In this document: one piece after another, positions 2,755 to 46,302 of the stretch
Layout: every line of letters begins with the position of its first letter
Position numbering within the stretch: position 1 is the stretch's first letter
IMG/VR virus record: IMGVR_UViG_3300048444_000173
Span: 18,363-82,362 of that record
DNA length: 64,000 nucleotides
Origin: a virus
Direction: 5' to 3' (one strand)
The notes under the pieces: model-generated
What the model saw: only the letters and a program-made list of their open reading frames with translations
Databases searched by the model: none
Told to the model about the DNA's origin: nothing
Translations under genes and position numbers: made by a program

Positions 2755-5261
2755 ATGATTGAAACCGTTGTAAAGCGAGATGGAACAGAAGAAGCGTTTG
2801 ATGCAGGTAAGCTAAATAAGTGGGCGGAGTTTGCAACAGAACAAGGCGGCGACTGGTCGGAGATTGCACGACAAACCTTTAAGAAATTACCAGCTAAATG
2901 TACGAGCAAAGACATTCACCAGACGATGATTGACGTATGCTTATCTAAACAAACTATTGAATACAGCCGTGTAGCTTCACGCTTAGAGCTTGCTGAGCTA
3001 CGTAAAGCGATGAATTATTTACTTAACATCGACCCGTTTGATAATTCATTCAAAGACATTATGCAAACTTATGAGGACTTAAATATATGGGATAGTGGCG
3101 TTATGCCTGAATATAACCCAGAGTGGGAGAACTGGTATAATGAATTGAAAGAATATCGTATGGAGTTTTGGCGTATAAAACAGTGGACGGATAAGTATTC
3201 ACAGCAACTTGATGATAACCCTGTTGAGACTCCTGCACTTGGTTATATGGGTATCGCTCTAGCGTTATTTGGCGACTCTGAGAAGGCTTATGAATTTGCT
3301 AAGGGTCTTACACTCGGTAAGATTAGTTTGCCTACTCCTGCTCTTAATGGTTTACGTAATGGTGATTGGGACACAATCTCTTGTTGTGTTATTTCAGCAG
3401 ATGATACAACTGAAAGTATTGGTGTGGCTAATTGGATCGCATATCGTATGACAGCTAAAAAGGCTGGCATTGGTATTGAATATACAACTCGCTCTAAAGG
3501 AGATAACGTCAAAGGTGGTCGAGTCAAACACTTAGGTAAACACCCTATTTATAAATGCTTAGACCGTGAGGTTAAGGTACTGACTCAGATTACTCGTGGT
3601 GGTAATGCAACAGTTACGGCATTAGCTATCGACCCAGAAATTGAGGATATTATCTTATGGCGTTCACAGCGTAAAGACATCGAGACTCGTATTGATAAGT
3701 TGGATAATGAATTTGGTTATAATGATGCGTTTGTTGATGCTGTTGTAGGTAATAAGGATTGGCACTTATTTAGTTATGGTGATGCGCCAGACGTTTACAA
3801 AGCATTTTATAAGGCTAACGTAGAGGACTATAACAAGGTTGTTGATGAGCATATTAAACGGGGAGTTAAGCACAAAACTGTTAAAGCTCGTGATTTACTT
3901 AAAACATTTTTAACTGTGCGTCAAGAAACTGGTCGATTTTATGACAACAACTTAACCCGAACTAATACGCATACGCCTTTTATTGATACAATTAAGCAAA
4001 GCAATCTGTAAAATAGTGCAGCCCTATTTAGGAATAGATAGGTGAAGAATCCTGTGAATTGCTGGAAACCTAAACGTGTTATGACGTAGGCAATCAGCAG
4101 CTAAGCTTGGAACATAGTTCCTTGAAAGTTCAGAGGTCATCTCGCAAGAGAGTAGGAGTCAAGTGATTCCGAAGCGCAGGACAACCAGAACGGTTGATGA
4201 TATGATCCGACACCCGTTGAAAAGCGGGAGAGACGTAACGAATCTCGTAACAGTGTGGCGAAGAAATTTGCTTACCAACAAAAGGTTATAAGTCAATGCA
4301 AGACCTTTATTCCCCAGAGAGTGAAGGTGAAACAGCATTCTGTAGCTTGTCTGCTATCAACGTTGCTAACGTAGCCTTAGATGAGTACGAGCGTGTTGCA
4401 GAGCTAGTATTAGAAGCTGTAGATATTATGATTGATAATGCCCCAATGATGACAGAATCAATGAAAGCGGATATTATGCGTAGGCGTAGTGTTGGAGTCG
4501 GTATCACTGGACTAGCAAGTGCTATGTATAGTAATGGTTACGATTATGATGGGAGTGACGAGTCCTTAGAGTTTGTGCAAAAAATAGCTGAACACCATTA
4601 TTTCTATTTACTAAAAGCTAGTCAGAAATTATCTGAACGTGATGGTTTTTGTGTAGAAGGTGTGAACTTAGATTGGCTACCAGTCGATACTGCTATAAGT
4701 AATTCTATAACAAATTTAGATTGGGAATCGTTGCGAGGGAAACCACGCAAGCACAGCGTACTTGTCGCTAATATGCCTACTGAGAGCAGTAGTCTTTTGA
4801 GTGGCAAAACCAATTCGTTGTACCCTGTGCGTAAGAAAGTCATCAATAAACGTAGTCGAAAAGGGCTGGTGCAATTCATTTGTCAGGAATTTGACCCAGA
4901 TAAACATTTAAGTGCTTGGGATGTTGATAATATTACTTTATCCAAGTACTATTCACACATTCAGGATTTCACTGACCAAGCGATTAGTGCTGACTTCTAC
5001 TTTAATCCTATGAAGTACGAGGATGAAAAAGCACCATTGTCAGTCCTGATGAAAGAGTGGGTTGCTCATGCTAAACTGGGTAACAAAACTAAGTATTACC
5101 TTAACACGAACGATGACAACGGTGGTTCTTTCCAAGACCAGACCAAAAAATCTAAAGGGGTCGAGTCTTACCTTTCGCCAGAAAAACCAATTAAGGAGAT
5201 CGTCAACGGTCTTGAGGTGGAAGCAGAAGAAGATGGTTGTCAGGGCGGTTGTAAATTATAA
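2755..5261 (+). CDS. nrdA: class Ia ribonucleotide reductase alpha subunit, join(2755..4009,4258..5261), 752 aa spliced
   Basis: ATP-cone start VVKRDG, PTP, SCCV; splicing restores SNLCEEI; MPTESSS, KTKYY and C-terminal GCQGGC. Confidence 0.95.
4010..4257 (+). ncRNA. group I self-splicing intron (phage IA2-like, no ORF) in nrdA
   Basis: Exon CUGU pairs with IGS GCAG (U.G at the splice site); P GAATTGCTGGAA, Q AATCAGCAG, R TTCAGAGGTCA, S GATATGATCC; terminal G at 4257; removal restores frame and the catalytic Cys. Confidence 0.92.
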
Positions 5262-5272
5262 GGAGTGAAAAT

Positions 5273-6346
5273 ATGACAGTATTTAATGCAAACAACAAAG
5301 GTTTTGAAACTAAGAAATATCCTCTCTTTTTCGGAGAGGAGCTTGGTTTATTTGATACGGTAAATGTTGCTTACCCAGAGGTTGATAAGCTATACCATCA
5401 ACAAATGAGCCAGATTTGGAATCATGCGGAGGTGTCACTAGACCAAGACAAGATGGATATGCAACGTCTGCCAAATGAAGTTGTTGACTTAATGGTTAAA
5501 ACATTGAGCTGGCAACACTTGGCTGATTCTGTTGCGGCACAATCAATCAGTACCCTATTGCTGCCCCATTGTACGAATAGTGAACTTGAAGCCATGTTGA
5601 CAGCACAGAGTTTGTTTGAGTGCATTCATGCCATGACCTATTCCCATATAGTTCAGCAGACGTTTTCTGATCCAAATAAAATGCTCAAAGATACCTATGA
5701 AAACACACATACACTCATTCGTTCACAAGCTATAGTTAAGGCGTTTGATGATGTCCAAGCATTACCTCAAGATGCTGACATTGAGGAAAAGCGTAAGGTT
5801 CTTATGAAAGCCTTTGTTGCGCTATTTGCACTAGAAGGTATTGCCTTTATGTCGTCCTTTGCTGTGACATTTGCTATTGCGGAGACGGATGTGTTTCAAG
5901 GGATTGGTGCATTGGTTGCGCTCGTATGCCGTGATGAGGTCCTTCATACAAGAATGGACTATACTGTTCTTGACTATATGCTTAAAGACTCTGACTGGCA
6001 AACAGCCTTGAGCGAGAGCAAGGATGAAATTAAACAGATATTGGATGACGTTACACAACAGGAGTTAGACTGGTCTGAGTATTTATTCAGCGAAGGTCGC
6101 CAAGTAGTGGGGTTAAATGAAACCTTACTAAAAGAATATGTTCAATTTATGGCTAAACCTATCTACGACTTCTTAGGCGTGGAATATAAATTTGAAAATA
6201 TTGCAGAAAATCCTTTACCTTATATGGAAAAGTATGTTGACCCTAGCCAGATGCAATCAGCCGCTCAGGAGATAAACATTACGTCCTACAAGGTTGGTTC
6301 AATTAAGGACGACACAACCGACCTAGACTTGGACTTTGACCTTTAA
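5273..6346 (+). CDS. nrdB: class Ia ribonucleotide reductase beta subunit
   Basis: W..EV.L..D, ADS, ECIHAMTY, LEGIAF, RDEVLH, QE...Y C-terminus. Confidence 0.95.
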   Translation: MTVFNANNKGFETKKYPLFFGEELGLFDTVNVAYPEVDKLYHQQMSQIWNHAEVSLDQDKMDMQRLPNEVVDLMVKTLSWQHLADSVAAQSISTLLLPHCTNSELEAMLTAQSLFECIHAMTYSHIVQQTFSDPNKMLKDTYENTHTLIRSQAIVKAFDDVQALPQDADIEEKRKVLMKAFVALFALEGIAFMSSFAVTFAIAETDVFQGIGALVALVCRDEVLHTRMDYTVLDYMLKDSDWQTALSESKDEIKQILDDVTQQELDWSEYLFSEGRQVVGLNETLLKEYVQFMAKPIYDFLGVEYKFENIAENPLPYMEKYVDPSQMQSAAQEINITSYKVGSIKDDTTDLDLDFDL

Positions 6347-7204: not shown

Positions 7205-7774
7205 ATGCGAAATATTGAAGCAATTAATCAAGTGCTAAAAGTTGTTGATGAAAACCGCGAGGAATTATTGAAAGGTTATCACGCTCAAGATGCTATTCAA
7301 AAGTTAATTCTGGAAAAAGAGTTGGCTGAATTAGAGCAATTATTCCAAGTTGAAATCAAAGATGGCTACAACACTGATTGGATCGACATGGGTGATAATC
7401 AGCGCATCGGGTTATTCTTTGGTAATACTGGTCGTAATATTTCTTGGCCTGACGCTGACTATAATTTATCCGAAGAGGAGTATGTATATGTCGTTAGCTT
7501 CCCTACTGGTGCGTATATCTTTGGTGGATACATGGATGATAAATATCCTGTCAAAACTTTCAGTAAATTCTTTAACGAATTGAAGGCGCTAGGTGCTAAG
7601 TATGTTGACAGCCATAATCACTGCTTGTATTTTCCGCCAGAAAAAGCTAAACTTGTTCGTGATAAGTATACTGAACTATTCAACAAGTACAAAAGTCAGG
7701 TTGAAGATGAGATGAAGGAACAACGCAAGCAAAAGTTACAGGAAGAACTTGATAAATTAAACTCGGAGGACTAA
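7205..7774 (+). CDS. hypothetical protein
   Basis: AGGAGG RBS, 189 aa. Confidence 0.8.
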   Translation: MRNIEAINQVLKVVDENREELLKGYHAQDAIQKLILEKELAELEQLFQVEIKDGYNTDWIDMGDNQRIGLFFGNTGRNISWPDADYNLSEEEYVYVVSFPTGAYIFGGYMDDKYPVKTFSKFFNELKALGAKYVDSHNHCLYFPPEKAKLVRDKYTELFNKYKSQVEDEMKEQRKQKLQEELDKLNSED

Positions 7775-7776
7775 TC

Positions 7777-8016
7777 ATGCGGGTAGTAATGATGACAATT
7801 AAGGACAAAATTGATAAAGCTATTGACGAAAATGGTAAAGATATTTTTCGTATTGAGTTGACTAATAGTGAATTTGCTGATTTTATCTACAGCGGAGTAT
7901 CACCAGAGTTATATCGTACAAGCATTGTATTTAATGGTGCTGAGAATGGATATTCTGGTTCTCACGTAATGTACCGTGACGTATGTGTTCAAACGCATCA
8001 TTCTTACACAGAATAA
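7777..8016 (+). CDS. hypothetical protein
   Basis: GGAGG RBS. Confidence 0.7.
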   Translation: MRVVMMTIKDKIDKAIDENGKDIFRIELTNSEFADFIYSGVSPELYRTSIVFNGAENGYSGSHVMYRDVCVQTHHSYTE

Positions 8017-8029
8017 GGGAGGAATAACT

Positions 8030-8296
8030 ATGCCAAACGAATTTGACCAATTATCATGTGTAGACGCTTTACGTAAAGAATGTGAGAACCTACTAGCACA
8101 AGTACGTTTTCACCAGCGTCAGGAACAAGAGCTACGTAGGCAATTATATGAGGCTAAATTAGAGAGCCTGACGCAAGCATACGACGACTTATTCTTCTAC
8201 ATTGACCCATTCTCAGGGTCTAGGAAAGTAATGCCCGTGGCGCTCTCTTATGAGGACTTTTACGACTATATTCAGCGTGTGAATGTGGAGGGGTAA
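8030..8296 (+). CDS. hypothetical coiled-coil protein
   Basis: Start moved to the ATG after GGAGG. Confidence 0.7.
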   Translation: MPNEFDQLSCVDALRKECENLLAQVRFHQRQEQELRRQLYEAKLESLTQAYDDLFFYIDPFSGSRKVMPVALSYEDFYDYIQRVNVEG

Positions 8297-8299
8297 TTT

Positions 8300-8464
8300 G
8301 TGAAATACATTCGTAAGTATTTACCAGAAGTCACTGTGATAGAGCGCATAGAAGATACCGATGACCTGAGTGGTGTTGTTAAATACATTAACGAATTTGG
8401 TTCGGTTTGTGTTATGCTGACTAAACACTTTGACGAATTGTATGAACAGAAGGTGGAGGGATAA
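8300..8464 (+). CDS. small hypothetical protein (54 aa, not in ORF track)
   Basis: GGAGG RBS plus GTG start; fills the gap exactly. Confidence 0.6.
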   Translation: MKYIRKYLPEVTVIERIEDTDDLSGVVKYINEFGSVCVMLTKHFDELYEQKVEG

Positions 8465-8467
8465 CTT

Positions 8468-8947
8468 GTGAAAGATAAACACGACAAAGTTACTATGGAA
8501 ATGGATTTGGAGGAGAATGTTATGACGACTATCAGCAAAGAAAATACCAAAATGGAATCTACAAATGACTTCCTCAAAAAGTTAATACTGATGATGGTTT
8601 CGGAAGAATTGGCTATAGACTTCGACCATGAATCAGAACAGTGTTATTTGATGCAAGTTGAGGTAGGTGAGTTCGATAATTGCCGAGAATATGGTTACAC
8701 TTATCGCGTAGTCAATGGTGAACAAGATATTACCTTCTGTGTGTATGAACATCGTAACTCAGACGCTATTATTATCAATGGTTGTCGCACAAAAGATATG
8801 AAAGAACATGGTCCGTACAATGGGGAGTCTAAGTATGATTTCTTATTCGGATTCCGTTATAATCAACACCAAGATTGTGCAGACAAATTAGCAGATTGTT
8901 TGCGTGAATGTTATTTGGGTAAGTTTGATGAGGGAGTTTTGTTATAG
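8468..8947 (+). CDS. hypothetical protein
   Basis: RBS; 159 aa, possible alternative start at 8522. Confidence 0.75.
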   Translation: MKDKHDKVTMEMDLEENVMTTISKENTKMESTNDFLKKLILMMVSEELAIDFDHESEQCYLMQVEVGEFDNCREYGYTYRVVNGEQDITFCVYEHRNSDAIIINGCRTKDMKEHGPYNGESKYDFLFGFRYNQHQDCADKLADCLRECYLGKFDEGVLL

Positions 8948-8955
8948 GGGTTATT

Positions 8956-9969
8956 ATGGCTAAAGCATTAACTATAGAAGAAATTAAAAATAGAATAGAA
9001 GGTATATTCGGAGATAAGTATGATTTATCTTCTATTCATTTTGATCCTGAAAACAAAAGGAAAGTGGTTATTCAATGTAGGAAGCATGGTGTGTATAAAC
9101 CATATATAGTTAATATATTTAGAGGTCATGGTTGTAAGGAATGTGATAACGAGCTAAGAAGGATAAAATTTGCGGAGGGGTGTGGTATGTTGGATGGACA
9201 ACCTCTTTCTAAAGTGTTTGAACAGTCATACTCCAGATGTAAGTTTTTGAAGATAGACAACACAAAAATGATTCATTATTTTTGCCCACACAGGGGTTTC
9301 TCTCAAATCACAAGACAGTCTTTCATGGGACAAAGAAAACGTATTTATGATTGTTGCCCTATTTGCGACCAAAAAGAAAATTACAGAAAGAAGCATGAGC
9401 GATTGTTCATTCAGAATGCTACAAAAATACACAGCGGTAAATATAGCTATGAAAATGTAAAATACATCGAGGCAAAGAGAAAAGTTGAGATAATTTGCCC
9501 TAAGCATGGTTCATTCTGGCAAAGACCTAACGATCACACATCTGACAAAAATGGATGTCCTGAGTGTCATGCTGAGAAGTTGCCGTATGACTATGATAGT
9601 CGGGTTAACTTAGCTAAATGGAAGAACGCCTTACTTTATGCTTTAGTTATAAAATATGAAGGCGGTAAATGTGTGAAAGTTGGTGTAAGTGTGGATATTG
9701 AAAAGAGAATGACAGAGTTAACGTCCGATATAATCAGGCTGAATGTTGAGCAAGGTAATAAAGATGAAGTAACTGCAACTCTTGTCAGGGGTTATGTACA
9801 TGATGTAAAAACTGCTTACAGAAGTGAGAGAAGGTTACATACTAAGTTAAAGGACTTTAAATATAAACCAGAGGTTAAGTTTGGCGGTCATTCAGAGTGC
9901 TATAGGTTTGATGAATTAGATCAAATTTTAAAGCTAATGGATGAGTTCCATTTTGAAGTAAATGGTTGA
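8956..9969 (+). CDS. putative homing endonuclease (CxxHG zinc repeats plus C-terminal GIY-YIG/T5orf172-like domain)
   Basis: CRKHG, CPKHGSFWQRPNDH...GCPEC; C-terminal LY...VKVGVS....R....E..LH....FGGHSEC. Confidence 0.75.
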   Translation: MAKALTIEEIKNRIEGIFGDKYDLSSIHFDPENKRKVVIQCRKHGVYKPYIVNIFRGHGCKECDNELRRIKFAEGCGMLDGQPLSKVFEQSYSRCKFLKIDNTKMIHYFCPHRGFSQITRQSFMGQRKRIYDCCPICDQKENYRKKHERLFIQNATKIHSGKYSYENVKYIEAKRKVEIICPKHGSFWQRPNDHTSDKNGCPECHAEKLPYDYDSRVNLAKWKNALLYALVIKYEGGKCVKVGVSVDIEKRMTELTSDIIRLNVEQGNKDEVTATLVRGYVHDVKTAYRSERRLHTKLKDFKYKPEVKFGGHSECYRFDELDQILKLMDEFHFEVNG

Positions 9970-10627: not shown

Positions 10628-11098
10628 ATGACTAAATATAGCAACCCAAAATCATTACCCGATCCAGTTGGAATGTTTGAACCACCATTATCGGAAGAAG
10701 TACCTGCTGAGTGGATTGAGGATAACAAAGGCGAAATTATTGACGTACTCATTGACAAAGGTTTCCATGAAGAATTGATTGAGTGGTATGTGGACGAGTT
10801 CTATGACGATATGGAATGTCAAGATGAGGTGATGAATGGTCTTATCTATGATATTGCTCGAACTTACACGCTAGATAATCCGCTATTGGATTTGTCAGAG
10901 ATTGTTGGCGAGTATTATGACGAAATTGAGAAGAAGTTAATGCTACATAAGCGTACAATCACTGGACATTTCCTTAACGAACATATTATTGGAGCAGAGC
11001 ATTTGCCAGAGTTTGTTGGTACAATGATTGACCCAACGATTGACGAAGTGTATGCTGAATATGTTGAAGAGTGTGAGCTTAATGATGCTATTGACTAA
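10628..11098 (+). CDS. highly acidic hypothetical protein
   Basis: AAGGAG RBS; D/E-rich. Confidence 0.75.
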   Translation: MTKYSNPKSLPDPVGMFEPPLSEEVPAEWIEDNKGEIIDVLIDKGFHEELIEWYVDEFYDDMECQDEVMNGLIYDIARTYTLDNPLLDLSEIVGEYYDEIEKKLMLHKRTITGHFLNEHIIGAEHLPEFVGTMIDPTIDEVYAEYVEECELNDAID

Positions 11099-14307: not shown

Positions 14308-14582
14308 ACAGCAGCCTAGACAAAATGACCTTAGCAGAAATTAAGGACTACGTATCTGCTTTAGAGAAGAAATCATCTAAGAATGACTATAAGGCTCATT
14401 TGGCTGATATTTTCACACAACTTGTGCAAATGATTGATGACCAAGACGTTCGTGATATGAGGTTGGAGATAGATAACTCGGATAAAGCGCCCTTATTCGG
14501 CATGTATGATAGTCATGGTAATATGCCAGATATTAAGCCGAGACTAGGTTGGACAGAAATTACGATTAAAATTTTGAGCTAA
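14304..14582 (+). CDS. hypothetical protein
   Basis: ATGA overlap. Confidence 0.7.
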   Translation: MNSSLDKMTLAEIKDYVSALEKKSSKNDYKAHLADIFTQLVQMIDDQDVRDMRLEIDNSDKAPLFGMYDSHGNMPDIKPRLGWTEITIKILS

Positions 14583-14588
14583 ATAACC

Positions 14589-14617
14589 TTGACAGAATAT
14601 TCGGCTTAGATTATAGT
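14589..14617 (+). promoter_or_regulatory. sigma70-type promoter
   Basis: TTGACA-N17-TATAGT. Confidence 0.75.
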
Positions 14618-14651
14618 GGTGGTGATTTTATTTGGATGGATGGAGAGAGAT

Positions 14652-14966
14652 ATGGGTAACGAAAAATTTAACCAACCGTGGGAGCGGTCATCAACGACGT
14701 ACAAGTTCGGTAAACCTATTGGTTACACTTTTGGTTATGGATGCAACAAACATAACGACGGACCAAAAGGTAAAATTGCATACGTTGAAACTGACGACCC
14801 GAAAGTTGCTGACTTTATTCAGGCCGCGCCTGATATGTGTCGGGTTTTGAGTGATATTTCAAACCTTTTAGGTCAAGGATACCCTCACGAAAACCTTGTA
14901 GCAGAGCTAGAGGCTGTACATTCAGAAATAGATAAATCCCTAGCAAAAGCGCGAGGTGAGGTATGA
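14652..14966 (+). CDS. hypothetical protein
   Basis: Start after GGAG; IxAAPD...AKARGE phage motif. Confidence 0.7.
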   Translation: MGNEKFNQPWERSSTTYKFGKPIGYTFGYGCNKHNDGPKGKIAYVETDDPKVADFIQAAPDMCRVLSDISNLLGQGYPHENLVAELEAVHSEIDKSLAKARGEV

Positions 14967-15220
14967 ATATCGAACAAATAAAACAAGTGCTTGAGGGTGC
15001 TGAAGAAGCCGACAATCATTTTCTTGAATTAGACGGTAAACATACACGGTACACTAGGCTTGCTAGTGACCATCATTGTTTAGACGACCTACGCACAATC
15101 CTAGCCCAGCATGAGGAAATTCAGCTATTGCGTGAGCAGCTAGAAATACAAACCAAGCGCGGGGATATGGTTAGTGGAGCTATTGATACAGCTTTGGATA
15201 TAAAGGAGCAGAATAAATGA
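14963..15220 (+). CDS. hypothetical protein
   Basis: ATGA overlap. Confidence 0.7.
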   Translation: MNIEQIKQVLEGAEEADNHFLELDGKHTRYTRLASDHHCLDDLRTILAQHEEIQLLREQLEIQTKRGDMVSGAIDTALDIKEQNK

Positions 15221-15960
15221 GTGAATACAGAAACTACGGCGATGACTTTATTATTGAGTCCAACAATTACGGTAAGCACGTATCAGCCATGACAGGTGAA
15301 CAATTACATAGCAAGTCTGATATAGCCGCTGAATTGGCTTATCGTGATGACCGAATCGAGCAGTTGGAGCGTGAGAATGAATTAGCAACCAAAGAAGCCT
15401 TGTTAATGGTTCAAGCTATGCACAAAGACTTCTACTCGGATTCCGATGGTGCAGAGTTATTTGAGCCATTAGATACCACCTCTGGCTTACTTACTCAAAT
15501 TGACAATATGTACGCAGGTATTCGTAACCGTTGCCGTGAGTTGGAGCGGGATAATCGGGAATTAGCTGATAAAAACTCCATCCTGTGGAATAGGTATAAC
15601 GAAGCCAGTACAGTCACAGGAAAAGAATGGGGGTTAACAAAAGAAAACCAAGCGCTAGCGGCGCATGTTGAACGTTTAATTAAAGCGTGTGAATTAGCCC
15701 GTGATAACTACGGTAAAATGCTATTGACTGACCCGCCGCAAGAAGCGTGGAAAGCAAATCAAGTGACCACAAAGTTGGTTGATGCAATAGCTTCAACGCC
15801 CCGAACCAGCCTAGCCGAGCGTGATGCGGAAGTTGCTAATAAAGCATTATTGAAGCTGGCAGAATACATGGAAGAAGGTTTTGGTGTGCCAGTGACTATG
15901 GGTTGTGATGAGGTTAGAGATTACGCCGCCAAAATCCGCAACGAAGGTTCTGACCAATAA
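15217..15960 (+). CDS. Ead/Ea22-like mosaic protein
   Basis: [27 protein letters not shown] motif. Confidence 0.6.
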
Positions 15961-17341: not shown

Positions 17342-17510
17342 CTTAACACCAGAAGAAATAGATAACTTAGTATACAAAGCCACTGTAGCTAAATGTATCT
17401 TAGTTGAAGATGGTTATTCAGAGGAAGAAGCAAAGGATTTAGCTTATGCTTTAGTCGATTATTGGATGGGGAAATATGATGATGAAAAAGGTTCAGGAAA
17501 ATCCGAATAG
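17328..17510 (+). CDS. hypothetical protein
   Basis: AAGGAG RBS. Confidence 0.65.
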
Positions 17511-18273
17511 GTATTCTTATCGAAGTGATGATGATGGGAGTAAGACCGTAGTTATAACCGATTTAGGTAAGAACAAATTGGAGGACATTAGACAAGAGAT
17601 GGAATCACTAGAAATGGAATATAATATGTTAAAACGGGATGACGATGCCGATGTACAACTACGCCTGACAAAGATCAATGGTAAGATTAATTCATTACGA
17701 CAGTTTGCAGCAAGAATTAGACGTGGTGATAAAGTTAAGAATACTTGGGATAATCAGTTTGCTACAAATTGCCATAGTTATGTCCTTGATAACGCTGGGG
17801 CAAGTGTTAGGGAAGCATTAGATACAACTGCTATGCAGATGGGTAAGACAGAAGATTTTGTCAAAGATATGGAAAGACGTAAATACCCTAAATATGAACT
17901 GAATCATTTATTCCATGTTCTTAGTCATCACCCAATTTGGAACGACATGATAAACTATGACGAAATAGATAAGTCTGATATAAATACTGCTACAGATTTA
18001 TCGAACCAGTTAAATAAGGTAAGAAGAGCTAGGAAGAGATATCAGTGGCGTAAAGATACTGAAAGTAAATTGAAAGAACATGAGGTTAAGATAAAACAGT
18101 TAGAATTTGAAAGTAATCTTGCTAAGATAATGGAAGAGAAATACGGACAAAATGTTAAGCCAGATGATTTTGACATAGTATTAGCATGGAGAAACACTGG
18201 AATGAGTATTCGTCAGATATCTAAGCAAACAGGTATTAGTAAGAGTCGTGTTCAAAGGCTATTACAGGAATAA
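17476..18273 (+). CDS. DNA-binding protein with coiled coils and C-terminal HTH
   Basis: GMSIRQISKQTGISKSRVQRLL HTH. Confidence 0.75.
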   Translation: MMMKKVQENPNRYSYRSDDDGSKTVVITDLGKNKLEDIRQEMESLEMEYNMLKRDDDADVQLRLTKINGKINSLRQFAARIRRGDKVKNTWDNQFATNCHSYVLDNAGASVREALDTTAMQMGKTEDFVKDMERRKYPKYELNHLFHVLSHHPIWNDMINYDEIDKSDINTATDLSNQLNKVRRARKRYQWRKDTESKLKEHEVKIKQLEFESNLAKIMEEKYGQNVKPDDFDIVLAWRNTGMSIRQISKQTGISKSRVQRLLQE

Positions 18274-18280
18274 TATAACA

Positions 18281-18567
18281 ATGTCCCAACTATTAACGAA
18301 AGAATGCGGGCTAGAGAGGAGTCAAGGTTATTTTGACGTAATATATGGGACAGTTTTGGGACAACGTGCTTAAGAGACAATATAAGGCATAGTATGTGTC
18401 CCAAACTGATTATGTCACTATATCGGGTCGTATCGCTTTTACCCTAGTTTTGGACGGAAGAATGCGGCCTGTAGCTTGATTATGACTATTTTACCGATAC
18501 GATTTTGTCCAAGTGTGCTATAGAAACATTATAAGGGTATAATACCGTATCGGATAATTAAGTCATA
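18281..18567. repeat. two tandem hairpin modules (origin-like)
   Basis: Shared AAGAATGCGG(G/C)CT(A/G)(G/T)AG box and shared loop GTGCT-N10-TATAAGG, enclosed by module-specific inverted repeats. Confidence 0.7.
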
Positions 18568-18764
18568 GCTATTCTGGCGCAATATTAAGGCATAATTCTT
18601 AGGTATAGTTAGTTATGGCATAGGTAGTTATGCCTAAATATACTGTATAAGTGTACAGTTATGAAGTGCTTCTATAAATTCGGGTCATAATGTACTGTGC
18701 AATCTGTTTTAGCGATACACTAAGACATAGTGATTTTGACTAACACTTGGTCAAATTGACTAAT

Positions 18765-18985
18765 GCTGTATTTGGGCATAGGATTGTGGTGCTGTATAGG
18801 GCATAGAGTTATGGCTAGGTATAAGGCATAGGATTGTGACAATGTAATTTAGCATAGAATTGTGACTAGGTATTTTGGCAATGCTTATGGCGATGTATTT
18901 TGGCATAGTATTATGGCAATGTTTATGTCGATATTTATGGTGATGCTATTTGGCATAAGATTATGACAATGTTTACGGCATTGTA
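18765..18985 (+). repeat. degenerate tandem repeat, ~25-26 bp x 8-9
   Basis: Units such as GGCATAGGATTGTGACAATGTAATTT, GGCATAGAGTTATGGCTAGGTATAA. Confidence 0.75.
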
Positions 18986-19081
18986 TCTGCAAATGTACTT
19001 GAAAGGGTAGCCAGATCCAACTAACACAGTAAAATATACTTTACCGAACCTATTATCTCACCATAATTCTATGCTATAACC

Positions 19082-19402
19082 TTTTGCGTAATCATAAGTA
19101 CACATATTATGCCTAAGTTTCTGGCGTGATCTTTTGCTAAGGAATCTTACCCTTTCGGGTATACATAAGTACAGATATTTTGCCAAAGTGTTTTTGCGTA
19201 ATCATAAGTACAGATATTTTGCCAAAGTTTCGGGTATACATAAGTAGGCAAATCATTCAGACGTAATCATAAATACAGGAATTTCGCCAGAGTGTTCAGG
19301 TTTACATAAGTACAAGAATTATGACAGGATATACATAAGTACAGATATTTTGCTCAGGTTTACATAAGTACAGATATTGTCAGGATATACATAAGTAGGC
19401 AT
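19082..19402 (+). repeat. iteron-like array, 9 x CATAAGTA core
   Basis: Cores at 19093, 19164, 19203, 19239, 19268 (CATAAATA), 19305, 19334, 19363, 19390. Confidence 0.85.
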
Positions 19403-19506
19403 ATTTGTCCGAACCGTTTTCCGAACCATGCTGTGCCTAACACGTTCAACCTGTCGCTGTCAATACCCTTTGTATAGAATATTCTGCTATAACCTTATGC
19501 CAAAAA

Positions 19507-19805
19507 ATTATATACCTGAAGTATTGACAAGATTATTTTAACACTATCTAGCAATATAACCTTGCTGAATATATGCCATAATCTTTATTAATACTGCTGC
19601 ACTGGAGTAATTTATAACGGTTATAAGCAATCTTGTTTTAATAACAATATTGAATATATGCCTAAAACGCTCTATACGGCATTCTAAGCAATTTTAGCCT
19701 TAAGTAATACGTTGGGCTAGGGTATAGGCGGATCTCCATTTTCTATACAGAATGTTATATATAGCTAAATATTATATGCCTGAAGTATTGACAAGATCAT
19801 TTTAA
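19507..19805 (+). repeat. 35-bp direct repeat (19507-19541, 19771-19805) containing TTGACA
   Basis: ATTATAT(A/G)CCTGAAGTATTGACAAGAT(T/C)ATTTTAA, 33/35 identical. Confidence 0.8.
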
Positions 19806-19904
19806 TATGCTATTCGCGTGTGCGTGTATATAAGAGTGTATCTAGCCGATATTGCCATATAACAGAATAGAATAGTAATAACGTTTAATATAATAAATTA
19901 ATCC

Positions 19905-19932
19905 TTGCTAGTTTTCATTGATTCGCTATAAT
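19905..19932 (+). promoter_or_regulatory. early sigma70-type promoter
   Basis: TTGCTA-N16-TATAAT with an AT-rich UP element. Confidence 0.65.
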
Positions 19933-20098
19933 TGTTTACAAGTTAAGGCGAACAACGCAACGAAAGGGTAAAATATTATGAGCAAACGTAAACAGCAACG
20001 CATTCGCAACGAACGTATTAAAGCTACTTTATTGATTTTATCAGCGCTATTACTAGGTGCACTTGGTTATATTATGGTAGTGGTATAAGGAATTTATT

Positions 20099-20329
20099 AT
20101 GATTTACATTGTAAGAGATTCGAACGACAACTTCAGCGTTACACGTACGCCACCAATGGCGCATAATGTAGGCGTAGTATCTGACTTAGCATACGAGCGC
20201 AACGGTTCAAGTGATAATCGCACTATGTACGGTGTTTTAACGCTACATTGCGAACAACGGTTATTGCAAAATGAATTGGCGGATATTGCACTAAAAACTA
20301 AATTATTAAACTTCATTAACGGGATTTAA
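20099..20329 (+). CDS. early hypothetical protein
   Basis: AAGGA RBS. Confidence 0.65.
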   Translation: MIYIVRDSNDNFSVTRTPPMAHNVGVVSDLAYERNGSSDNRTMYGVLTLHCEQRLLQNELADIALKTKLLNFINGI

Positions 20330-20450
20330 TCATGTTCTTATTCATGCTTATTTCTTCTTTTATATTCTTTGGCGTATTGCTTCATATTGGAATATCGCTA
20401 AATACTATGACCAAAGAAACTTACCAACTATTAGAAAAGAGTATTTAATT

Positions 20451-20639
20451 ATGTTTTACAACGTACACATTGAAAACAACATCGCAAAAAATACAACCGC
20501 TTCAGGCGCTGAACGTATGTTAAAAGAGTTTGGCTTGACTTCTCAGCAAATAGAACGAGCTTTACAAGTTGGCGTTGTTCCCCGTTCTTTTTGTAATTCT
20601 AAAATCAAGCTAGTTTGGATCAAAAAGGTGGGGGAATAA
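20451..20639 (+). CDS. early hypothetical protein
   Basis: Operonic. Confidence 0.6.
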   Translation: MFYNVHIENNIAKNTTASGAERMLKEFGLTSQQIERALQVGVVPRSFCNSKIKLVWIKKVGE

Positions 20640-20641
20640 CC

Positions 20642-20881
20642 ATGAATAATACTTGCGTTATTTATTGCAACGGTTTTAACCAATGGATCGTTCAAGCGGG
20701 TTTTGAAATAATCGGTCGTTATGACTCATTAAAAGGCGCTAGAATTGCAGCAACAAAAAAGGGCTTTAATCATGCAAAAATTAAAACGTGCTTTACTGGA
20801 ATTTTTAGCTGCATCAAGCGTCACAGCTATTGGTTTATTATCTTGCTATATTGCATGGACAACAACGCTTTAACGGCTTGA
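20642..20881 (+). CDS. early hypothetical protein
   Basis: GGGG RBS, start adjusted. Confidence 0.55.
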   Translation: MNNTCVIYCNGFNQWIVQAGFEIIGRYDSLKGARIAATKKGFNHAKIKTCFTGIFSCIKRHSYWFIILLYCMDNNALTA

Positions 20882-20930
20882 CAGGCTTTATAGCGTACAA
20901 TTTAACACTAAATAATAAGGGTATATTATT

Positions 20931-21407
20931 ATGAAAACTTTACAAACTCTGATCAACACTATTAACGACAACCTTGTTTTAAAAACTCGCCCCGATGATA
21001 CGCAATTTTATTGTGTTGCTGATAATGCGCCTGAATATGTGCAAGATCTAGCGCATCACGTCCATGACGATATGATGCCGGATGACTACCGGTATAAATT
21101 TTTAACGGAAACAATCCGAGAGATAGCAGATTATGACGAACAAACGCTAACTGACATGCTGACAGGTGATTATGATATTTATGACATTATCGGTGAACCT
21201 GATGTTTACAATCATAGTCTTTTACAGTGGCAAGCGTCCAACCTTTCACGCATGGAATATGCGGATGATTGTTTAGCAGAGTACGAACCTCAGTCATTAT
21301 CACAGTTGTTAATGTCTGCACAACATAAGGAAATGGTAGAAGTGTTTAACCTAATTTTATCATGGTTGGAACAACAACAATATGAGATGTGGGAAGAAGT
21401 AGCATAA
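20931..21407 (+). CDS. acidic helical protein, putative Ocr-like anti-restriction DNA mimic
   Basis: Very D/E-rich; H...PDDYRY and PDVYNHSLLQW motifs; early-region position. Confidence 0.45.
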   Translation: MKTLQTLINTINDNLVLKTRPDDTQFYCVADNAPEYVQDLAHHVHDDMMPDDYRYKFLTETIREIADYDEQTLTDMLTGDYDIYDIIGEPDVYNHSLLQWQASNLSRMEYADDCLAEYEPQSLSQLLMSAQHKEMVEVFNLILSWLEQQQYEMWEEVA

Positions 21408-36121: not shown

Positions 36122-36197
36122 TGGCGTTCCTACTAGGACTTGAACCTAGACCACAAACTTAGAAGGATTGTATGCTTTCCAATTACACTATAGGAAC
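36122..36197 (-). tRNA. tRNA-Arg (anticodon TCT), CCA encoded
   Basis: Acceptor GTTCCTA/TAGGAAC, T-arm CTAGG-TTCAAGT-CCTAG, anticodon loop CTTCTAA, 76 nt. Confidence 0.93.
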
Positions 36198-37362: not shown

Positions 37363-38178
37363 TTATGCTTTAGTCCAGTCTTTATCTGGCGCATATCGTT
37401 CTCGTAATGCTTTAGCAACACGTTCGTCTGATTGTTCATCAGCAAGTTGACAAGCGAGTTCGTGTTTGCGAGCTTGCCATACTTTGTGTGCTTCCATTGG
37501 GTCGTCGAAAGCACCCAACCGCTCAGCTTTACCAGTGAACGGGTTACCACACCTTGCAATAAATCTATTTTCTTTTTTACATAAGCTCGCACCAATAGGG
37601 TAAACTCCTACATTAGAAGGATATATGGCGAATAAGTTAGTTTTGGTGTCTACAAAAGCACAGTAATCTGGACAATAGACCTTGTTTCCTCTTTTTATAA
37701 TATCTTTGTCTAAAGCCAACCCTTCCCATTCTCTTTTTGTGACCCAATCCCTGAATTTTGTGAAATAAAGCCACTCGTCACAAACTGTGACATCTTTATA
37801 CACTGGTGCTGTTTTAAGACCTTTCTCTGAATAACAACGTCTTATCATTCCTCTCCATTTGTCATAGATAGGGCAGCTTTTCACTTCACCATCTTGATAG
37901 AACCGATTCTTGTGTTCCGTATCACAAATACCGACTCCGTGTATTTTATTCAACCCTCCGTTCGCATTCTTTTTGGTTTTTATATAAGGGTCTTTGAAGC
38001 AGCCGTTTTTAAAATGCCTACAGTCAACGATATAACGGTGTCCACTCTCGACTTCTATTAAGCAATTTTTAAAGTTGATATATTCGACAAGTTTGCCAAC
38101 GGAACCATTGTGGGATTCAACCACCATGCCTTCTCTTTCTGATTTCTGTTTAAGTCTACGCTCTTCTCTCCAGTCCAT
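37363..38178 (-). CDS. free-standing HNH homing endonuclease with AP2-like C-terminus
   Basis: Y..W..M.RRCY, V.VCDEW..F..F, LDKDI...GNKVYCPD.C.FV...N, LG.F....EA. Confidence 0.88.
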   Translation of the reverse strand: MDWREERRLKQKSEREGMVVESHNGSVGKLVEYINFKNCLIEVESGHRYIVDCRHFKNGCFKDPYIKTKKNANGGLNKIHGVGICDTEHKNRFYQDGEVKSCPIYDKWRGMIRRCYSEKGLKTAPVYKDVTVCDEWLYFTKFRDWVTKREWEGLALDKDIIKRGNKVYCPDYCAFVDTKTNLFAIYPSNVGVYPIGASLCKKENRFIARCGNPFTGKAERLGAFDDPMEAHKVWQARKHELACQLADEQSDERVAKALRERYAPDKDWTKA

Positions 38179-38248: not shown

Positions 38249-39857
38249 TTATAAAATAAATTGTTTACGAGTAGTAAAGTTACTATTTTTGATAAGACCA
38301 TCTACAGCGAAACCAAGCGCATCAACATGGTTAGGGGAGCGCCCCTTGCCATCGAAACTAATCATCTCATTCTCAAGCTCGCCAAGATCTGCGTTAGTGT
38401 CATGGAAAACTATTCCAGTTTCATAGAACTGAGCGCAAGTTATTGCTCTAGCATATTTCTTATTCACTGACGAAAATTCTTCCATAGGCAAGAAGGGGTG
38501 TTCTCGCTTAATCATGCTCTTATACATCCCTCCGATTCCGTTGGCTTCAATTCTCACCTTAGTCGGACAGAAGTTGCTGTATTTACTGTGTAACGAATGT
38601 ATAGTTTTAATACAAGTGTCACCAGACATTCTAGCAGTCTTATCTTCAACCACAAGAATCTTGTCAGATTCAGTTAGTACAGCAACGATTATACCAGTTT
38701 CGTCAGACGCTTTTGATGTAGATTCACCAGCAGGGTCTAAGCCTATAACAGCCTTCTTCCAATATTTAGGGTGAAACTCACCCATTTTTGTTGCTCTGCA
38801 CTTGTCTAAAAGGTCAGGATTCCAAGCCGCCATGTCATTGGCGAGAATAAGTTCACCCTCAACCTCTTGCATACCTAGCTTAGTTTTCCTTGTCCTTTCA
38901 GCGTTAGCAAGCATCTGGGGTGAAAGGTTGTCCGAGTTCTCGAAACTACTACCTGTCACAATCCTTACGTTACTATCTTCTTCCTCTGATTGTTTCTTTA
39001 ATTCAATCATCAAAGGTGTTGCTTTGGGTGTTGTTACAATGATACCCTGAGAAATACCCAGTCGTAAACCGTATAGCAAGTTATGATAGAACTCTAGCGC
39101 ATCGCCGGACCAAGCCGCTGCTTCGTCTGATAAAAGCACCTCCGAATTTATGCCCCTGCTACGCTCGCTGGACTCACTACTAACCAAACGGGCTACAGCA
39201 CCATTTTTATGCTTAAGTACACCATAGTGAGGCATATACTCTGGCTTGTTTGGGTCATTGTCTGAATAAGCGTTCAAGACCCCAGATTCACCTCTCACAA
39301 TTGTGTTCACAAGGTCATTGTTGCTCGGTGCAGCAATAGTGAGATGCTTTACCCCAAGCTCTTCAACATAATATTTATACATCCTTGCTAGACAGAAAGT
39401 TTTACCAACAAATATGTTCAACGTAGGTCGTTAATCTACGCCAGCGACATTACTCGCATCTCTATGTTACCATAGAAGTTCAGACTATATCTTCAAGGAA
39501 TATTATTCCAAGCTCCTCGTTTCCACCCACTTGGGCGTACGCCTCCCAGCTAGTCGTTACACACGGCTATTAAGCCTTGCTCGGTATTGTCCATTTAGGA
39601 GTTCCACCGAATTAGAGGAGTTTTACGTGAGCAAGGTTTTACCCACGACCTGCCAATACAAGGCAGATGTTTCTTTCTAGGTCAACAGGGATAAACTGTT
39701 TACGTCTAAGATGTATGATTGGATCATAAGCAAACTCTTCACGTTGAGCCGCCGTAAGATTATCAATAAATGCCTGTTTATCTTCTTTTGGCATCTGTTT
39801 TAACCGCTCACCTAAGTCCAATCTCTGCTCAGGTGTTAAGTCCGATAGTTTTTGCAT
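38249..39857 (-). CDS. terL: terminase large subunit, join(39857..39641,39408..38249), 458 aa spliced
   Basis: Splicing restores Walker A LAGRGFGKT; RSRG, SDEAA Walker B, TTP, nuclease GLDPA...DETGI, SPNHVDA. Confidence 0.92.
39409..39640 (-). ncRNA. group I self-splicing intron (no ORF) in terL
   Basis: P1 CGUGGGU/GCUCACG with U.G at the splice site; P AATTCGGTG, Q AATACCGAG, R GTAACGACTA, S AAGATATAGTC; terminal G at 39409. Confidence 0.93.
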
Positions 39858-41761: not shown

Positions 41762-41921
41762 CCCGTTATAATTGGCTATGCTTACTATGACAATTTGGAA
41801 TAAATATAGTTCAAAATTAGTAGTGTTATAATGTAACAAAATAGGGGTCATTTTCGAAATGCTCTAGCCCATGTGTGGCGTAGCCTGTAGCTCGATTTTC
41901 GCTCTTAGATCCGTTATAATG
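41762..41921. promoter_or_regulatory. intergenic control site: 3 x GTTATAAT plus inverted CTCTAGCC...GCCTGTAG
   Basis: CCGTTATAAT at 41763 and 41911, GTGTTATAAT at 41823; GCCTGTAGCTCGAT matches 18467-18480 at 13/14. Confidence 0.5.
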
Positions 41922-42022
41922 GGGGGATTTCTGCCATGATTTCCTTGTTATAGTATTAGTAATGATCTATACTACAGATATTATGTAATAGATTATGTCA
42001 TAGACATTAGGAGTAAATAGTT

Positions 42023-43276
42023 ATGTCAGTAGAGTTAATAATGGATAGTAGAGTACACAAGGATAGTGATTACCTAGTTAATCTTATCTATGATTCTGTC
42101 ATAGGTTCTTTCAAGAATACTAGGACAAGAACAAGTAAGTCAAAAGTAAAGGGTTGTCTACAGTGTATTGTTAAAACATTACTCTACATGGACAAGGAAG
42201 GATACGGTTATGCTTCTGTTAGCCTAGATGAGTCTGACTACACTGGTAAAGCAAAGATAAATGGTGAGGACAAAGATATTCTACCATCGTATTCTTACAT
42301 GATTGACTTACTTCCACTCCTGCATGAGTTAAAATGGATTAAGTATAAGAAACATGACCAACTAGATTATGCCGAATACTCTGCCAGAATTATGAACCAT
42401 GGGTTTGACATAATTCCGTTAAAGGTTACTGACAGATGTTCTACCATTAGGCGAGGTAAGCGTTGGAAGCAACAACGTAAACGTAAGAAACATGTAAAAG
42501 ATATTAAGCCAACATTATCGGTTATAGAAATTAGGGACATGAATAAGAACTTATTACCAGTACCAGATACAGAGGAGACAAGACAGTTGAAGAAAGATAT
42601 GTTTGCATTAAATGACTGGATGAACAGTAACAAGGTTGTGCATCAAGGTGAACGCCTGTTTATTTGGCTTAAGCGTATCTACCAAATGGACTTTGAACAA
42701 GGTGGTCGATACTACTCTGAAAAAGGTACTGTGCAAAGCATTCCTAAGCAAGAACGATTCAATATTACTATTGCAGGTGAATCCATAAGTGAATTGGACT
42801 ATGTTTCATGCCAATACCGAATCCTTGCTGATTTCAATGCGGTAAATTTGGAACAAGGTTTTGACCCATACTTCATTCCAGAGCTTCCTCAAGTGAGCAG
42901 GAGTATGCTTAAAAAGTGTAGCGTTGTGATGCTTAACACAAGTGGAAGAAAGTCTGCCTATGGTGCTGTCAGGAATGAATTAAAGCATTTAGGCGTAAAA
43001 CCTAAGCAAGTATTTGACGCGCTAATTGATCACAACTGGTATGTTAAAGATTATGCGTTCAAACAAGTAGGAATGAAACTGCAAAAGATAGAGTCAGAGA
43101 TATGTGGCATGGTGTTGGATATTTGTATGCGTGATAATGTACCTGTGTTCCCTATCCACGACAGCTTCTTATGTCGAGCTAAGGACAAGGAATTATTGCA
43201 TGAAATTATGTTGCAATCTTGGCGTAATGTGTTAGGATTGAACATGAACTGTAAGATTAAGGAGGAAACACTATGA
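42023..43276 (+). CDS. minimal family-A/T7-RNAP-related polymerase (TV-Pol-like)
   Basis: GGRYY; Q.I.K..R..I.I.G; motif A ELDY; K....LN; LQKIES; motif C IHDSF. Confidence 0.65.
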   Translation: MSVELIMDSRVHKDSDYLVNLIYDSVIGSFKNTRTRTSKSKVKGCLQCIVKTLLYMDKEGYGYASVSLDESDYTGKAKINGEDKDILPSYSYMIDLLPLLHELKWIKYKKHDQLDYAEYSARIMNHGFDIIPLKVTDRCSTIRRGKRWKQQRKRKKHVKDIKPTLSVIEIRDMNKNLLPVPDTEETRQLKKDMFALNDWMNSNKVVHQGERLFIWLKRIYQMDFEQGGRYYSEKGTVQSIPKQERFNITIAGESISELDYVSCQYRILADFNAVNLEQGFDPYFIPELPQVSRSMLKKCSVVMLNTSGRKSAYGAVRNELKHLGVKPKQVFDALIDHNWYVKDYAFKQVGMKLQKIESEICGMVLDICMRDNVPVFPIHDSFLCRAKDKELLHEIMLQSWRNVLGLNMNCKIKEETL

Positions 43277-45720: not shown

Positions 45721-46302
45721 ATGACAACAATCGCTATCGACCAATCCCTTACAATGGCAGCAGATTCCCAAGCTACAGTTGGCGACAGACGAGTTCAACA
45801 ACCCGTTACAAAGATATTCCAGACAAACGGTTATACCATTGGTGTTGCTGGTCGATACTCAGAAGCACTAGCATTCGTAGATGCTTTAGAAGATGCACTA
45901 GAGCGAGTTAAGCTACAACAAACCACCTACATAGAAATTGAACAAGGTGTTATCGAAGAAATGGACAACTTCCATGCGCTTATGATCACACCAGAAGGCG
46001 ACATCCTAGAGTACGAGGGAAGTCGTTTCACAGTACCCGTAGAAGCTCCTGTAGCGATTGGTAGTGGCGCTGACTATGCCCTAGCAGCTATGGAGTGTGG
46101 TAAGAACGCGATTGAAGCCGTAGAAGTTGCAATTAAATTTGATGTATATTCTGGAGGAGAAGTCCAGTTTGCATCAACCCCTGAGCCTGAGCAAGTACCT
46201 AGTCGAGAGGATTGGGAGAAGAAACCTAAACGTGAAATCCTAGACGAGATATTTGGTAAAAAAGATGAGCAACAGAAGCCCCTCCCCAGATCAGGTACAT
46301 AA
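45721..46302 (+). CDS. HslV/proteasome-beta-like Ntn peptidase
   Basis: N-terminal MTTIA, AADSQ, K, G.AG, AIGSG..YA, AV..A...D.YSGG. Confidence 0.8.
   Translation: MTTIAIDQSLTMAADSQATVGDRRVQQPVTKIFQTNGYTIGVAGRYSEALAFVDALEDALERVKLQQTTYIEIEQGVIEEMDNFHALMITPEGDILEYEGSRFTVPVEAPVAIGSGADYALAAMECGKNAIEAVEVAIKFDVYSGGEVQFASTPEPEQVPSREDWEKKPKREILDEIFGKKDEQQKPLPRSGT

Follow-up and report, generated by a model that had tools for sequence, protein, structure and literature searches.

What does an unannotated 417-aa protein do in a marine virus, and at which site would it act? The question is raised by positions 41762-43276 of a 64-kb stretch of DNA, called the window here, which comprises bases 18363-82362 of the 82,362-bp IMG/VR virus record IMGVR_UViG_3300048444_000173, a marine virus record rated complete. 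The product was read from the open reading frame (ORF) 42023-43276 on the plus strand, which has a ribosome-binding site (GGAG) 9 nt ahead of its ATG and heads a rightward arm of genes. An A+T-rich gap of 261 nt (41762-42022) parts it from the leftward gene of an ECF-type sigma factor (Sigma70_r2 E 3e-10; TIGR02937 E 8e-18). A preliminary description of the window had rightly noted this divergence, had taken the product for a minimal polymerase related to T7 RNA polymerase (RNAP) and PolA, and had coupled its upstream site to hairpin modules at 18.3-18.6 kb in a two-locus system. Our analysis confirms the polymerase fold, moves the candidate site to a conserved bipartite element beside the gene, and tentatively suggests an initiator polymerase that would make primers at this element. 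The features that carry the argument are as follows.

42023..43276, plus strand: the 417-aa ORF, a winged-helix-like domain with a minimal family-A (TV-Pol-like) polymerase, family phrog_4756 (profile match, AlphaFold2 model)
42023..42502, plus strand: N-terminal winged-helix-like domain, residues 1-160, then a basic low-confidence linker RRGKRWKQQRKRKKH (structural matches)
42512..43273, plus strand: polymerase core, residues 164-417 (Foldseek, structural alignment, invariant columns)
41856..41896 (41 bp), plus strand: bipartite element (position weight matrix built from relatives only, leave-one-out scans, alignment)

Sequence searches of Pfam, NCBIfam and the PDB with the 417-aa protein gave nothing usable, and Pfam had no match for 81 relatives, nor for 10 longer family members. 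The AlphaFold2 model (pLDDT 91.1, pTM 0.87) was compared with the PDB using Foldseek, where the best matches are family-A DNA polymerases (E 1e-7, probability 1.0). A second, independent structural aligner gave for residues 164-417 Z scores of 14.3 with the apicoplast polymerase apPol, 13.6 with yeast mitochondrial RNAP, 12.9 with Pol nu, 12.8 with Klenow and 12.7 with T7 RNAP. As modelled, the fold of the core fails to separate DNA from RNA polymerases. The sequence model of family-A DNA polymerases (PF00476) is matched neither by the protein nor by its 81 relatives although the fold-level match is clear, and the likeness to T7 RNAP is likewise structural, with no Pfam family matched. The preliminary description had seen no recognisable exonuclease or helicase, which agrees with the lack of a Pfam or NCBIfam match and with the winged-helix-like N-terminus.

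The motifs that first drew attention to the ORF sit on invariant or near-invariant columns of the family alignment of 81 sequences. GGRYY (227-231) corresponds to the T/DxxGR-like hairpin, ELD (257-259) to motif A, LQKIES (353-358) to a fingers helix and IHDS (378-381) to motif C. G228, R229, R245, D259, Y283, K297 and D380 are invariant, R293, H379, S381 and N305 are near-invariant, and at least 90% of the sequences keep G227, Y231, E257, L353, S358, H379 and S381. In the model, hairpin strands 216-221 and 227-232 bear the invariant G228-R229, and the palm, which superposes on family-A polymerases, carries D259 of motif A and D380 of motif C. The fingers contain D281-P-Y283 and an RxxxK pair, R293 (at least 90%) and the invariant K297. 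The core residues are thus the hairpin Arg R229, D259, DPY 281-283, the O-helix residues R293, K297 and N305, and H379-D380-S381 of motif C, and by the model the protein is a minimal family-A/T7-RNAP-type polymerase with the full set of catalytic residues present.

Motif A, DYVSCQYRILA, parallels DYSQIELRVLA of Pol I when aligned by eye with the Klenow motifs. In the same alignment by eye the steric-gate Glu (Klenow E710) is replaced by Q264, a position that is His in at least 90% of the family, and the O-helix reads R293-K297-V301-N305 where Pol I has R-K-F-Y (F762/Y766) and T7 has R-K-M-Y. The protein thus lacks the steric-gate Glu and the O-helix Phe and Tyr of family-A DNA polymerases (Q264, V301, N305). 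With a Gln or His gate and an R-K-V-N O-helix, sugar selectivity therefore cannot be read off the residues, though the bulky gate residue leans to dNTPs.

Could the protein then be a minimal single-subunit RNA polymerase which, like N4 RNAPII or T7 RNAP, recognises a promoter, in this case the element alone, and transcribes the operon that begins with its own gene? The structural match to T7 and mitochondrial RNAP (Z 12.7-13.6) is as good as that to DNA polymerases, DPY283 and GGRxY resemble the DIY and RGRVY of T7, and an adjacent ESM Atlas cluster is automatically named 'DNA-directed RNA polymerase family protein'. Motif A, however, follows the Pol I pattern (DYxxxH/Q..IL): the position of the Gly of T7 RNAP is taken by a bulky His or Gln. 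A thumb that appears very small speaks against processive transcription. The 250-aa core would leave little space for a T7-type specificity loop. The properties of the element, given below, also count against this idea, as does the phage sigma factor that is present for transcription driven by the host RNAP; we consider it improbable.

The N-terminal domain supplies what would be a DNA-binding part. In the whole model, residues 1-160 match eS19, Nse3, Zb and IclR at Z 5.2-6.6, and when the domain was modelled by itself (pLDDT 74), the best-ranked matches were winged-helix domains almost throughout (Z 4.7-6.2). Overall the matches include eS19, ADAR1 Zb and the winged-helix domains of TFE, Fur, CodY, CtsR, MarR and Orc (Z 4.7-6.6). 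The family profile gave a weak PadR match (E 0.52). There is moderate support from these comparisons for calling residues 1-160 winged-helix-like.

How widespread is such a protein? It matches phrog_4756 ('unknown function') at E 1.2e-60, and an exhaustive search found 4263 representative clusters of this family at E <= 1e-3 and 1152 at E <= 1e-10. Homologues were found by tblastn in 248 phage records (Rheinheimera, Vibrio, Aeromonas, Pseudoalteromonas, Shewanella), and among the homologue records listed all are hypothetical or without annotation; in BFVD, one Barba31A homologue entry bears the name 'DNA polymerase'. Gp100 of the cholera phage ICP1 (58.3-59.9 kb) is a full-length member. A word-indexed homologue search returned only the 417-aa protein itself, and we found no near-DNA relative in the phage collection, nor in IMG/VR by single protein. 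A literature search gave no mention of phrog_4756, nor of gp100 in connection with ICP1. The plasmid collection yielded one weak match, a Neorhizobium chromid, and we therefore ruled out a plasmid replication family.

The closest described relatives appear to be the TV-Pols, which Iyer, Abhiman and Aravind (2008, PMC2579912) predicted to be primase-polymerases, with Ma-LMM01 MAP_030 and Sputnik V13 as examples. The family profile has one match in the genome of Microcystis phage Ma-LMM01 (E 0.0023), in MAP_030, a 506-aa hypothetical protein that adjoins IS605-type transposases and fits the TV-Pol element of PMC2579912. MAP_030 is the only TV-Pol compared, and we take it for one from its size and its transposase neighbours. 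In the hhalign comparison of phrog_4756 with MAP_030, 168 columns are colinear and span the hairpin and motifs A, B and C; both have His at the steric gate and Asn in the O-helix. The TV-Pol relation named in the preliminary description thus holds as an alignment colinear through all motifs, but a marginal one (E 1.3e-4, probability 54%). Because of the profile match and this colinearity with gate His and O-helix Asn in common, phrog_4756 is probably a phage branch of the TV-Pol assemblage. The two also share a minimal family-A core without a nuclease domain, the beta-hairpin Arg, two catalytic Asp, the fingers Asp and RxxxK, and a viral setting. They differ at the N-terminus, which is winged-helix-like in phrog_4756 whereas TV-Pols have an all-helical module or a D5 helicase fusion, and in their neighbours, since no helicase, resolvase, integrase or transposase recurs at 38 phrog_4756 loci. 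The thumb of the 417-aa protein appears reduced; in the model one long helix (184-201) comes before the hairpin. The TV-Pol thumb is described as two antiparallel coiled-coil helices (PMC2579912).

The second part of the question concerns the site. The element consists of two units, CTCTAGCCC and GCCTGTAGC, 23 nt apart from start to start; in the window, unit 1 reads TGCTCTAGCCC (~41860-41870) and unit 2 reads GCCTGTAGCT (41883-41892). The consensus is AAATGGCTnTAGCC, about 12 nt, GGCCTGTAGC, then ATTT; the units are pseudo-palindromic, and an A+T-rich stretch comes after the element. A two-unit position weight matrix built from relatives only ranks 41856-41896 first genome-wide (24.0, against 10.4 for the next unrelated site), and no second bipartite copy was found in the 82-kb genome. 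Leave-one-out scans of 39 loci of 10-14 kb each placed the top match 20-290 nt ahead of the polymerase homologue in 16 of them; it is on the opposite strand in KLEP7, the 2L372X group and the relatives L016, L022 and L013. It is kept although the proteins share only 24-31% identity. In four relatives with 85-89 kb of sequence each, the strict unit pattern was found only at the polymerase locus.

The centre dinucleotides of the units covary as direct repeats (GT/GT, AC/AC, CT/CT). This excludes a hairpin between the units and points to a site bound by protein as double-stranded DNA, and we regard the element as a candidate site of that kind. An RNA hairpin between the units was considered and rejected: the AC/AC centres in the relatives L021 and L024 cannot pair, and the fold has z about 0. 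The RNA polymerase explanation introduced above is weakened by an element that is unique in the genome and inverted in several lineages, and by the result that no repeated T7-like promoter words were found in the genome.

Six G+C-rich relatives (L025, L028, L032, L034, L036, L042) are without the GGCTGTAGCC-type element. What they have in common, 100-150 nt ahead of the polymerase gene, is a conserved stem-loop (GAAGCCCG ... CGGGCTTC), after which come CTAAAT and a GCCTTGGCGGGC word. This stem-loop may be a lineage-specific counterpart of the bipartite element.

Is the element tied to the distant modules? The words on which the preliminary description relied are indeed present: GCCTGTAGCTCGAT at 41883, with one mismatch to 18467; GGGCTAGAG at 18308, with its reverse complement at 41862; and GTTATAAT three times, at 41765, 41825 and 41913. 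Two of them look functional because they are the units of a bipartite element conserved upstream of the gene in many distant phages, but not as copies of the modules. When 41762-42022 is aligned locally with 18274-18700, nothing better than a single 14/15 match results. Its score was reached by 42 of 500 shuffles and equalled or beaten by 10 unrelated chunks of the window, and is within chance; the genomes of relatives contain background matches of like kind, 13-14 nt long (12-mer background). GTTATAAT, whose reverse complement had been likened to the module-loop word, is not enriched (8 in the window against 4.8 expected), and its three copies are plus-strand −10-like TATAAT boxes. Folding scores for the upstream site are not significant (z +0.2 and −0.3), and it is not a hairpin.

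The two-locus model, with priming or transcription by the polymerase at hairpin modules of 18281-18567 that match its upstream site, can still point to the 14/15 match of 41883 with 18467, to the similarity of module B with unit 2 of the relative L023 (TGCGGCCTGTAGC), and to the folding of module B, which is better than that of shuffles (z −2.9) while module A does not fold (z −1.25). Apart from the chance level of the match, a single-unit matrix holds too little information to set the modules apart from noise, neither the modules nor any other part of the genome has a second bipartite copy, the upstream site is not a hairpin, and the four relatives restrict the strict pattern to the polymerase locus. 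We consider such a two-locus system highly improbable. Priming or transcription at a specific site, the other half of the earlier proposal, is plausible, with the adjacent double-stranded element rather than the modules as the candidate site.

What would the protein do at this element? Our preferred answer, a tentative one, is that of a site-specific initiator polymerase that makes primers at its own adjacent element. What the analysis shows is the fold, the conservation of the active-site residues and of the cis element, the placement of the gene and the type of replisome; that the protein binds the element, makes primers and acts in replication initiation is what we infer. At the divergent strand switch, the winged helix would bind the adjacent bipartite element, which is conserved and has no other copy in the genome. 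The polymerase core would make there a short primer, or a short primer-like transcript, and this would start leading-strand synthesis for a T7-type replisome (a gp4-like primase-helicase and a DNA polymerase) in a phage in which no T7-like RNA polymerase was found. The same binding would also permit autoregulation. In T7 and in mitochondria the origin primer comes from a polymerase of the same superfamily: T7 RNAP primes the T7 primary origin, and mitochondrial RNAP supplies primers at OriH/OriL, each at a defined site.

Several observations are consistent with this role. The part of the genome outside the window has genes for a primase-helicase like T7 gp4 (phrog_239, E 6e-122), a 744-aa DNA polymerase (phrog_1252) and an exonuclease; we found no T7-like RNA polymerase in this phage with its T7-type replisome and no PF00476 (DNA_pol_A) match in the genome. 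A gp4-like protein is present in five of five relatives tested. By crude ORF maps of the relatives, the polymerase is the first gene after a run on the opposite strand in ~14 of 33 loci and at most four genes away from it in ~26 of 33, and the strand-switch position also holds in Barba19A, KLEP7 and ICP1. In each of the four complete genomes examined, the GC skew switches from minus to plus no more than ~1 kb from the element, and the theta origin of ICP1 has been mapped beside gp100.

The following points weigh against the initiator role. GC skew and strand switches track transcription and the coding strand, and the skew switch is therefore not independent evidence of an origin. The ICP1 origin is mapped to within a few kb only, and the leave-one-out scan did not find the element upstream of ICP1 gp100, nor in PH357 and 277E43-1. 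The gp4-like protein already has a DnaG-type primase domain. Some phages have 2-3 full-length paralogues of the polymerase, not all at strand switches, and the polymerase activity of phrog_4756 members is predicted only. The genome also contains, far from the gene, a region that looks like a more classical origin. Lastly, the element is placed like the activator sites of a sigma-70-type promoter and may therefore be only a promoter or an operator for another factor. Two of these points call for detail, on the region and on the promoter.

Seawater metagenome contigs from other samples did not cover the gap. It contains the following further features.

41825..41832, plus strand: extended −10-like box (TGnTATAAT), GTGTTATAAT (consensus match only)
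41915..41920, plus strand: TATAAT box, 24 nt after unit 2 (placed by position arithmetic)
41980..42003, plus strand: tandem 12-mers ATTATGTAATAG / ATTATGTCATAG, directly before the ribosome-binding site

The box at 41915-41920 would set the unit centres near −40 and −63, and relatives have TATA(T/A)(G/A)G boxes at the corresponding place. On this footing the element could serve solely as a promoter or operator. The protein might bind it to regulate its own gene, or another regulator, of the phage or of the host, might do so; the polymerase would then work elsewhere and without site specificity, for example in gap filling, lesion bypass or recombination-dependent synthesis, or by making an anti-defence nucleic-acid product. 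Besides the spacing, this would suit a gene that many phages carry within runs of small early or accessory genes, that has paralogues in some genomes and that has no conserved partner (none among the downstream genes of 7 phages or at 38 loci). The element, however, can point either way with respect to the gene, whereas an activator site and its promoter usually keep a fixed geometry; the winged-helix fusion speaks for targeting to a site, and the co-location with the ICP1 origin would be a coincidence. We consider this explanation rather unlikely.

In ICP1 itself, three TTAAAGTGT-containing repeats lie between gp97 and gp98 (10647-10727 of locus L008), 330-400 nt upstream of gp100 and in the region to which the theta origin maps; no comparable bipartite element was found in that region, only these repeats. 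In a 2L372X-type phage (L014/L015, ~5340-5400) the second paralogue is preceded, at a distance of ~60 nt, by a perfect DnaA-box word, TTATCCACA, which may be chance (~0.002 per locus).

The region with the look of a more classical origin is 18273-20931 of the window, 2.6 kb without an ORF of at least 90 aa and with the lowest G+C of the genome, directly after a Dda-like helicase and a helix-turn-helix (HTH) protein. It holds two iteron-like arrays, one of ~8 copies of a 25-26-nt unit (18764-18972) and one of 7-9 copies of xCATAAGTACAGATATTTTGCC (19086-19420), and we regard it as a candidate origin or regulatory array. Module B (18440-18570) lies here; its long, imperfect inverted repeat (~18473-18570) outscored all 200 shuffles in folding. 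The HTH protein (265 aa, 17476-18273, plus strand) has a C-terminal HTH with a weak sigma-70 region-4-like match (TIGR02937 E 0.005); it is encoded directly upstream of the region and may bind it. A 24-nt iteron matrix ranks the polymerase upstream gap 47th, which is no match; we found no connection between the iteron region and the polymerase gene. A ATTRTGNNAWWG pattern linking the gap to the iterons was set aside as post hoc and weak.

Could the gene instead be a selfish element? In the TV-Pol tradition it might over-replicate or mobilise its own locus in co-infection, which would account for the patchy distribution, the 2-3 paralogues of some genomes and the frequent HNH neighbours. The only recurrent neighbour is indeed an HNH homing endonuclease (phrog_953, 11 of 38 loci), and the Ma-LMM01 TV-Pol adjoins IS605-type transposases. 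The ECF sigma gene is not a conserved neighbour across the loci compared. Homing endonucleases, however, are typical neighbours of conserved core genes. Beside the phage copies, no integrase, resolvase or transposase was seen in annotated regions, and none recurs as a neighbour cluster; lineages also agree in placing the gene at the main strand switch. A selfish gene is, in our judgement, very unlikely. At least six HNH/endonuclease-type (homing-endonuclease-like) genes were found in the 82-kb genome.

1678-2463, 8956-9969 and 37363-38178 of the window: HNH/endonuclease-type genes
4560-5300, 7742-8629 and 14437-15726 of the rest of the genome (L001): HNH/endonuclease-type genes

The proposed initiator polymerase can be compared with several known systems. 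T7 and mitochondrial RNAP belong to the same superfamily and supply primers for a replisome with a gp4-type helicase and a family-A-type polymerase; they are, however, processive transcriptases of 880-1200 aa with a specificity loop, whereas the phrog_4756 protein has 417 aa, a motif A like that of Pol I and another, predicted DNA-binding module. N4 RNAPII (gp15/gp16; PDB 6dt7) is also a very small T7-like phage polymerase depending on accessory DNA-binding functions, but it is a heterodimer without a winged-helix fusion and a weaker structural match (Z 7.8). Iteron-binding initiators such as plasmid Rep/RepA and Orc/Cdc6 have a winged helix, a direct-repeat site by their own gene and an adjacent A+T-rich stretch; they recruit helicases and primases and have no polymerase domain, and the winged helix resembles theirs at Z ~4.7-4.9. 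CCPol-MP of SCCmec, where CCPol is a TV-Pol and with its partner MP an experimentally shown dNTP primase (PMC7581432), and the Pol-SSB pairs (PMC10061031) share the A-family core; primers are made de novo by CCPol, the enzyme of a mobile element, as is proposed here for the phage protein, and CCPol prefers an initiation site adjoining its own operon. CCPol, however, depends on a helicase encoded nearby and on a small OB-fold protein whose gene lies downstream, whereas phrog_4756 is without a conserved partner, and CCPol retains the Pol I steric-gate Glu where the family has His (Gln in the 417-aa protein).

The layout of the genome is similar to that of the Rheinheimera Barba phages (PMC6715854). 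The window also encodes NrdAB, the Dda-like helicase, ThyA, a polynucleotide kinase, an RNA ligase and a methylase. The 83-aa product encoded downstream of the polymerase is acidic and, by a reading of its sequence only, helical. An HslV/Ntn-hydrolase-like protein is encoded at 45721-46302 (plus strand), an assignment by sequence reading only, and KLEP7 has an annotated HslV protease close to its polymerase homologue. Two group I introns (Rfam RF00028, 64.7 and 65.3 bits) lie at 3998-4229 (plus strand) and 39460-39703 (minus strand); one interrupts nrdA (2755-4011 / 4296-5261), the other appears to interrupt a putative large terminase gene (38249-39421 / 39639-39857). A tRNA-Arg(TCT) gene is at 36122-36197 (minus strand). 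The exact terminal repeat of the record is 27 nt only; the label 'direct terminal repeats' may have arisen because a circularly permuted genome was assembled with overlapping ends.

Extended to the family, the initiator role leads to a bolder proposal, possible though more speculative: phrog_4756 would be a widespread, undescribed class of origin-specific initiator-primases, in which the winged helix reads the bipartite site beside the gene and a TV-Pol-type core primes; in phages with T7-type replisomes this would replace the origin priming by T7 RNAP, and ICP1 gp100 would be the missing theta-origin initiator. Minimal family-A polymerases acting as primases have one biochemically studied case, CCPol-MP. 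Phrog_4756 is far larger (4263 representative clusters) and phage-borne, and it comes with its own winged-helix-like domain and a conserved, genome-unique cis element, so that direct tests can start from a known enzyme and a known candidate site. A polymerase of this small size that is targeted to a sequence might, in addition, be useful as a tool enzyme. Even if the replication role is wrong, hundreds of sequenced phages encode an unannotated polymerase that is, by its residues, catalytically intact. The family also brings forward gp100 as a concrete candidate for what initiates theta replication in ICP1, a genetically tractable model phage.

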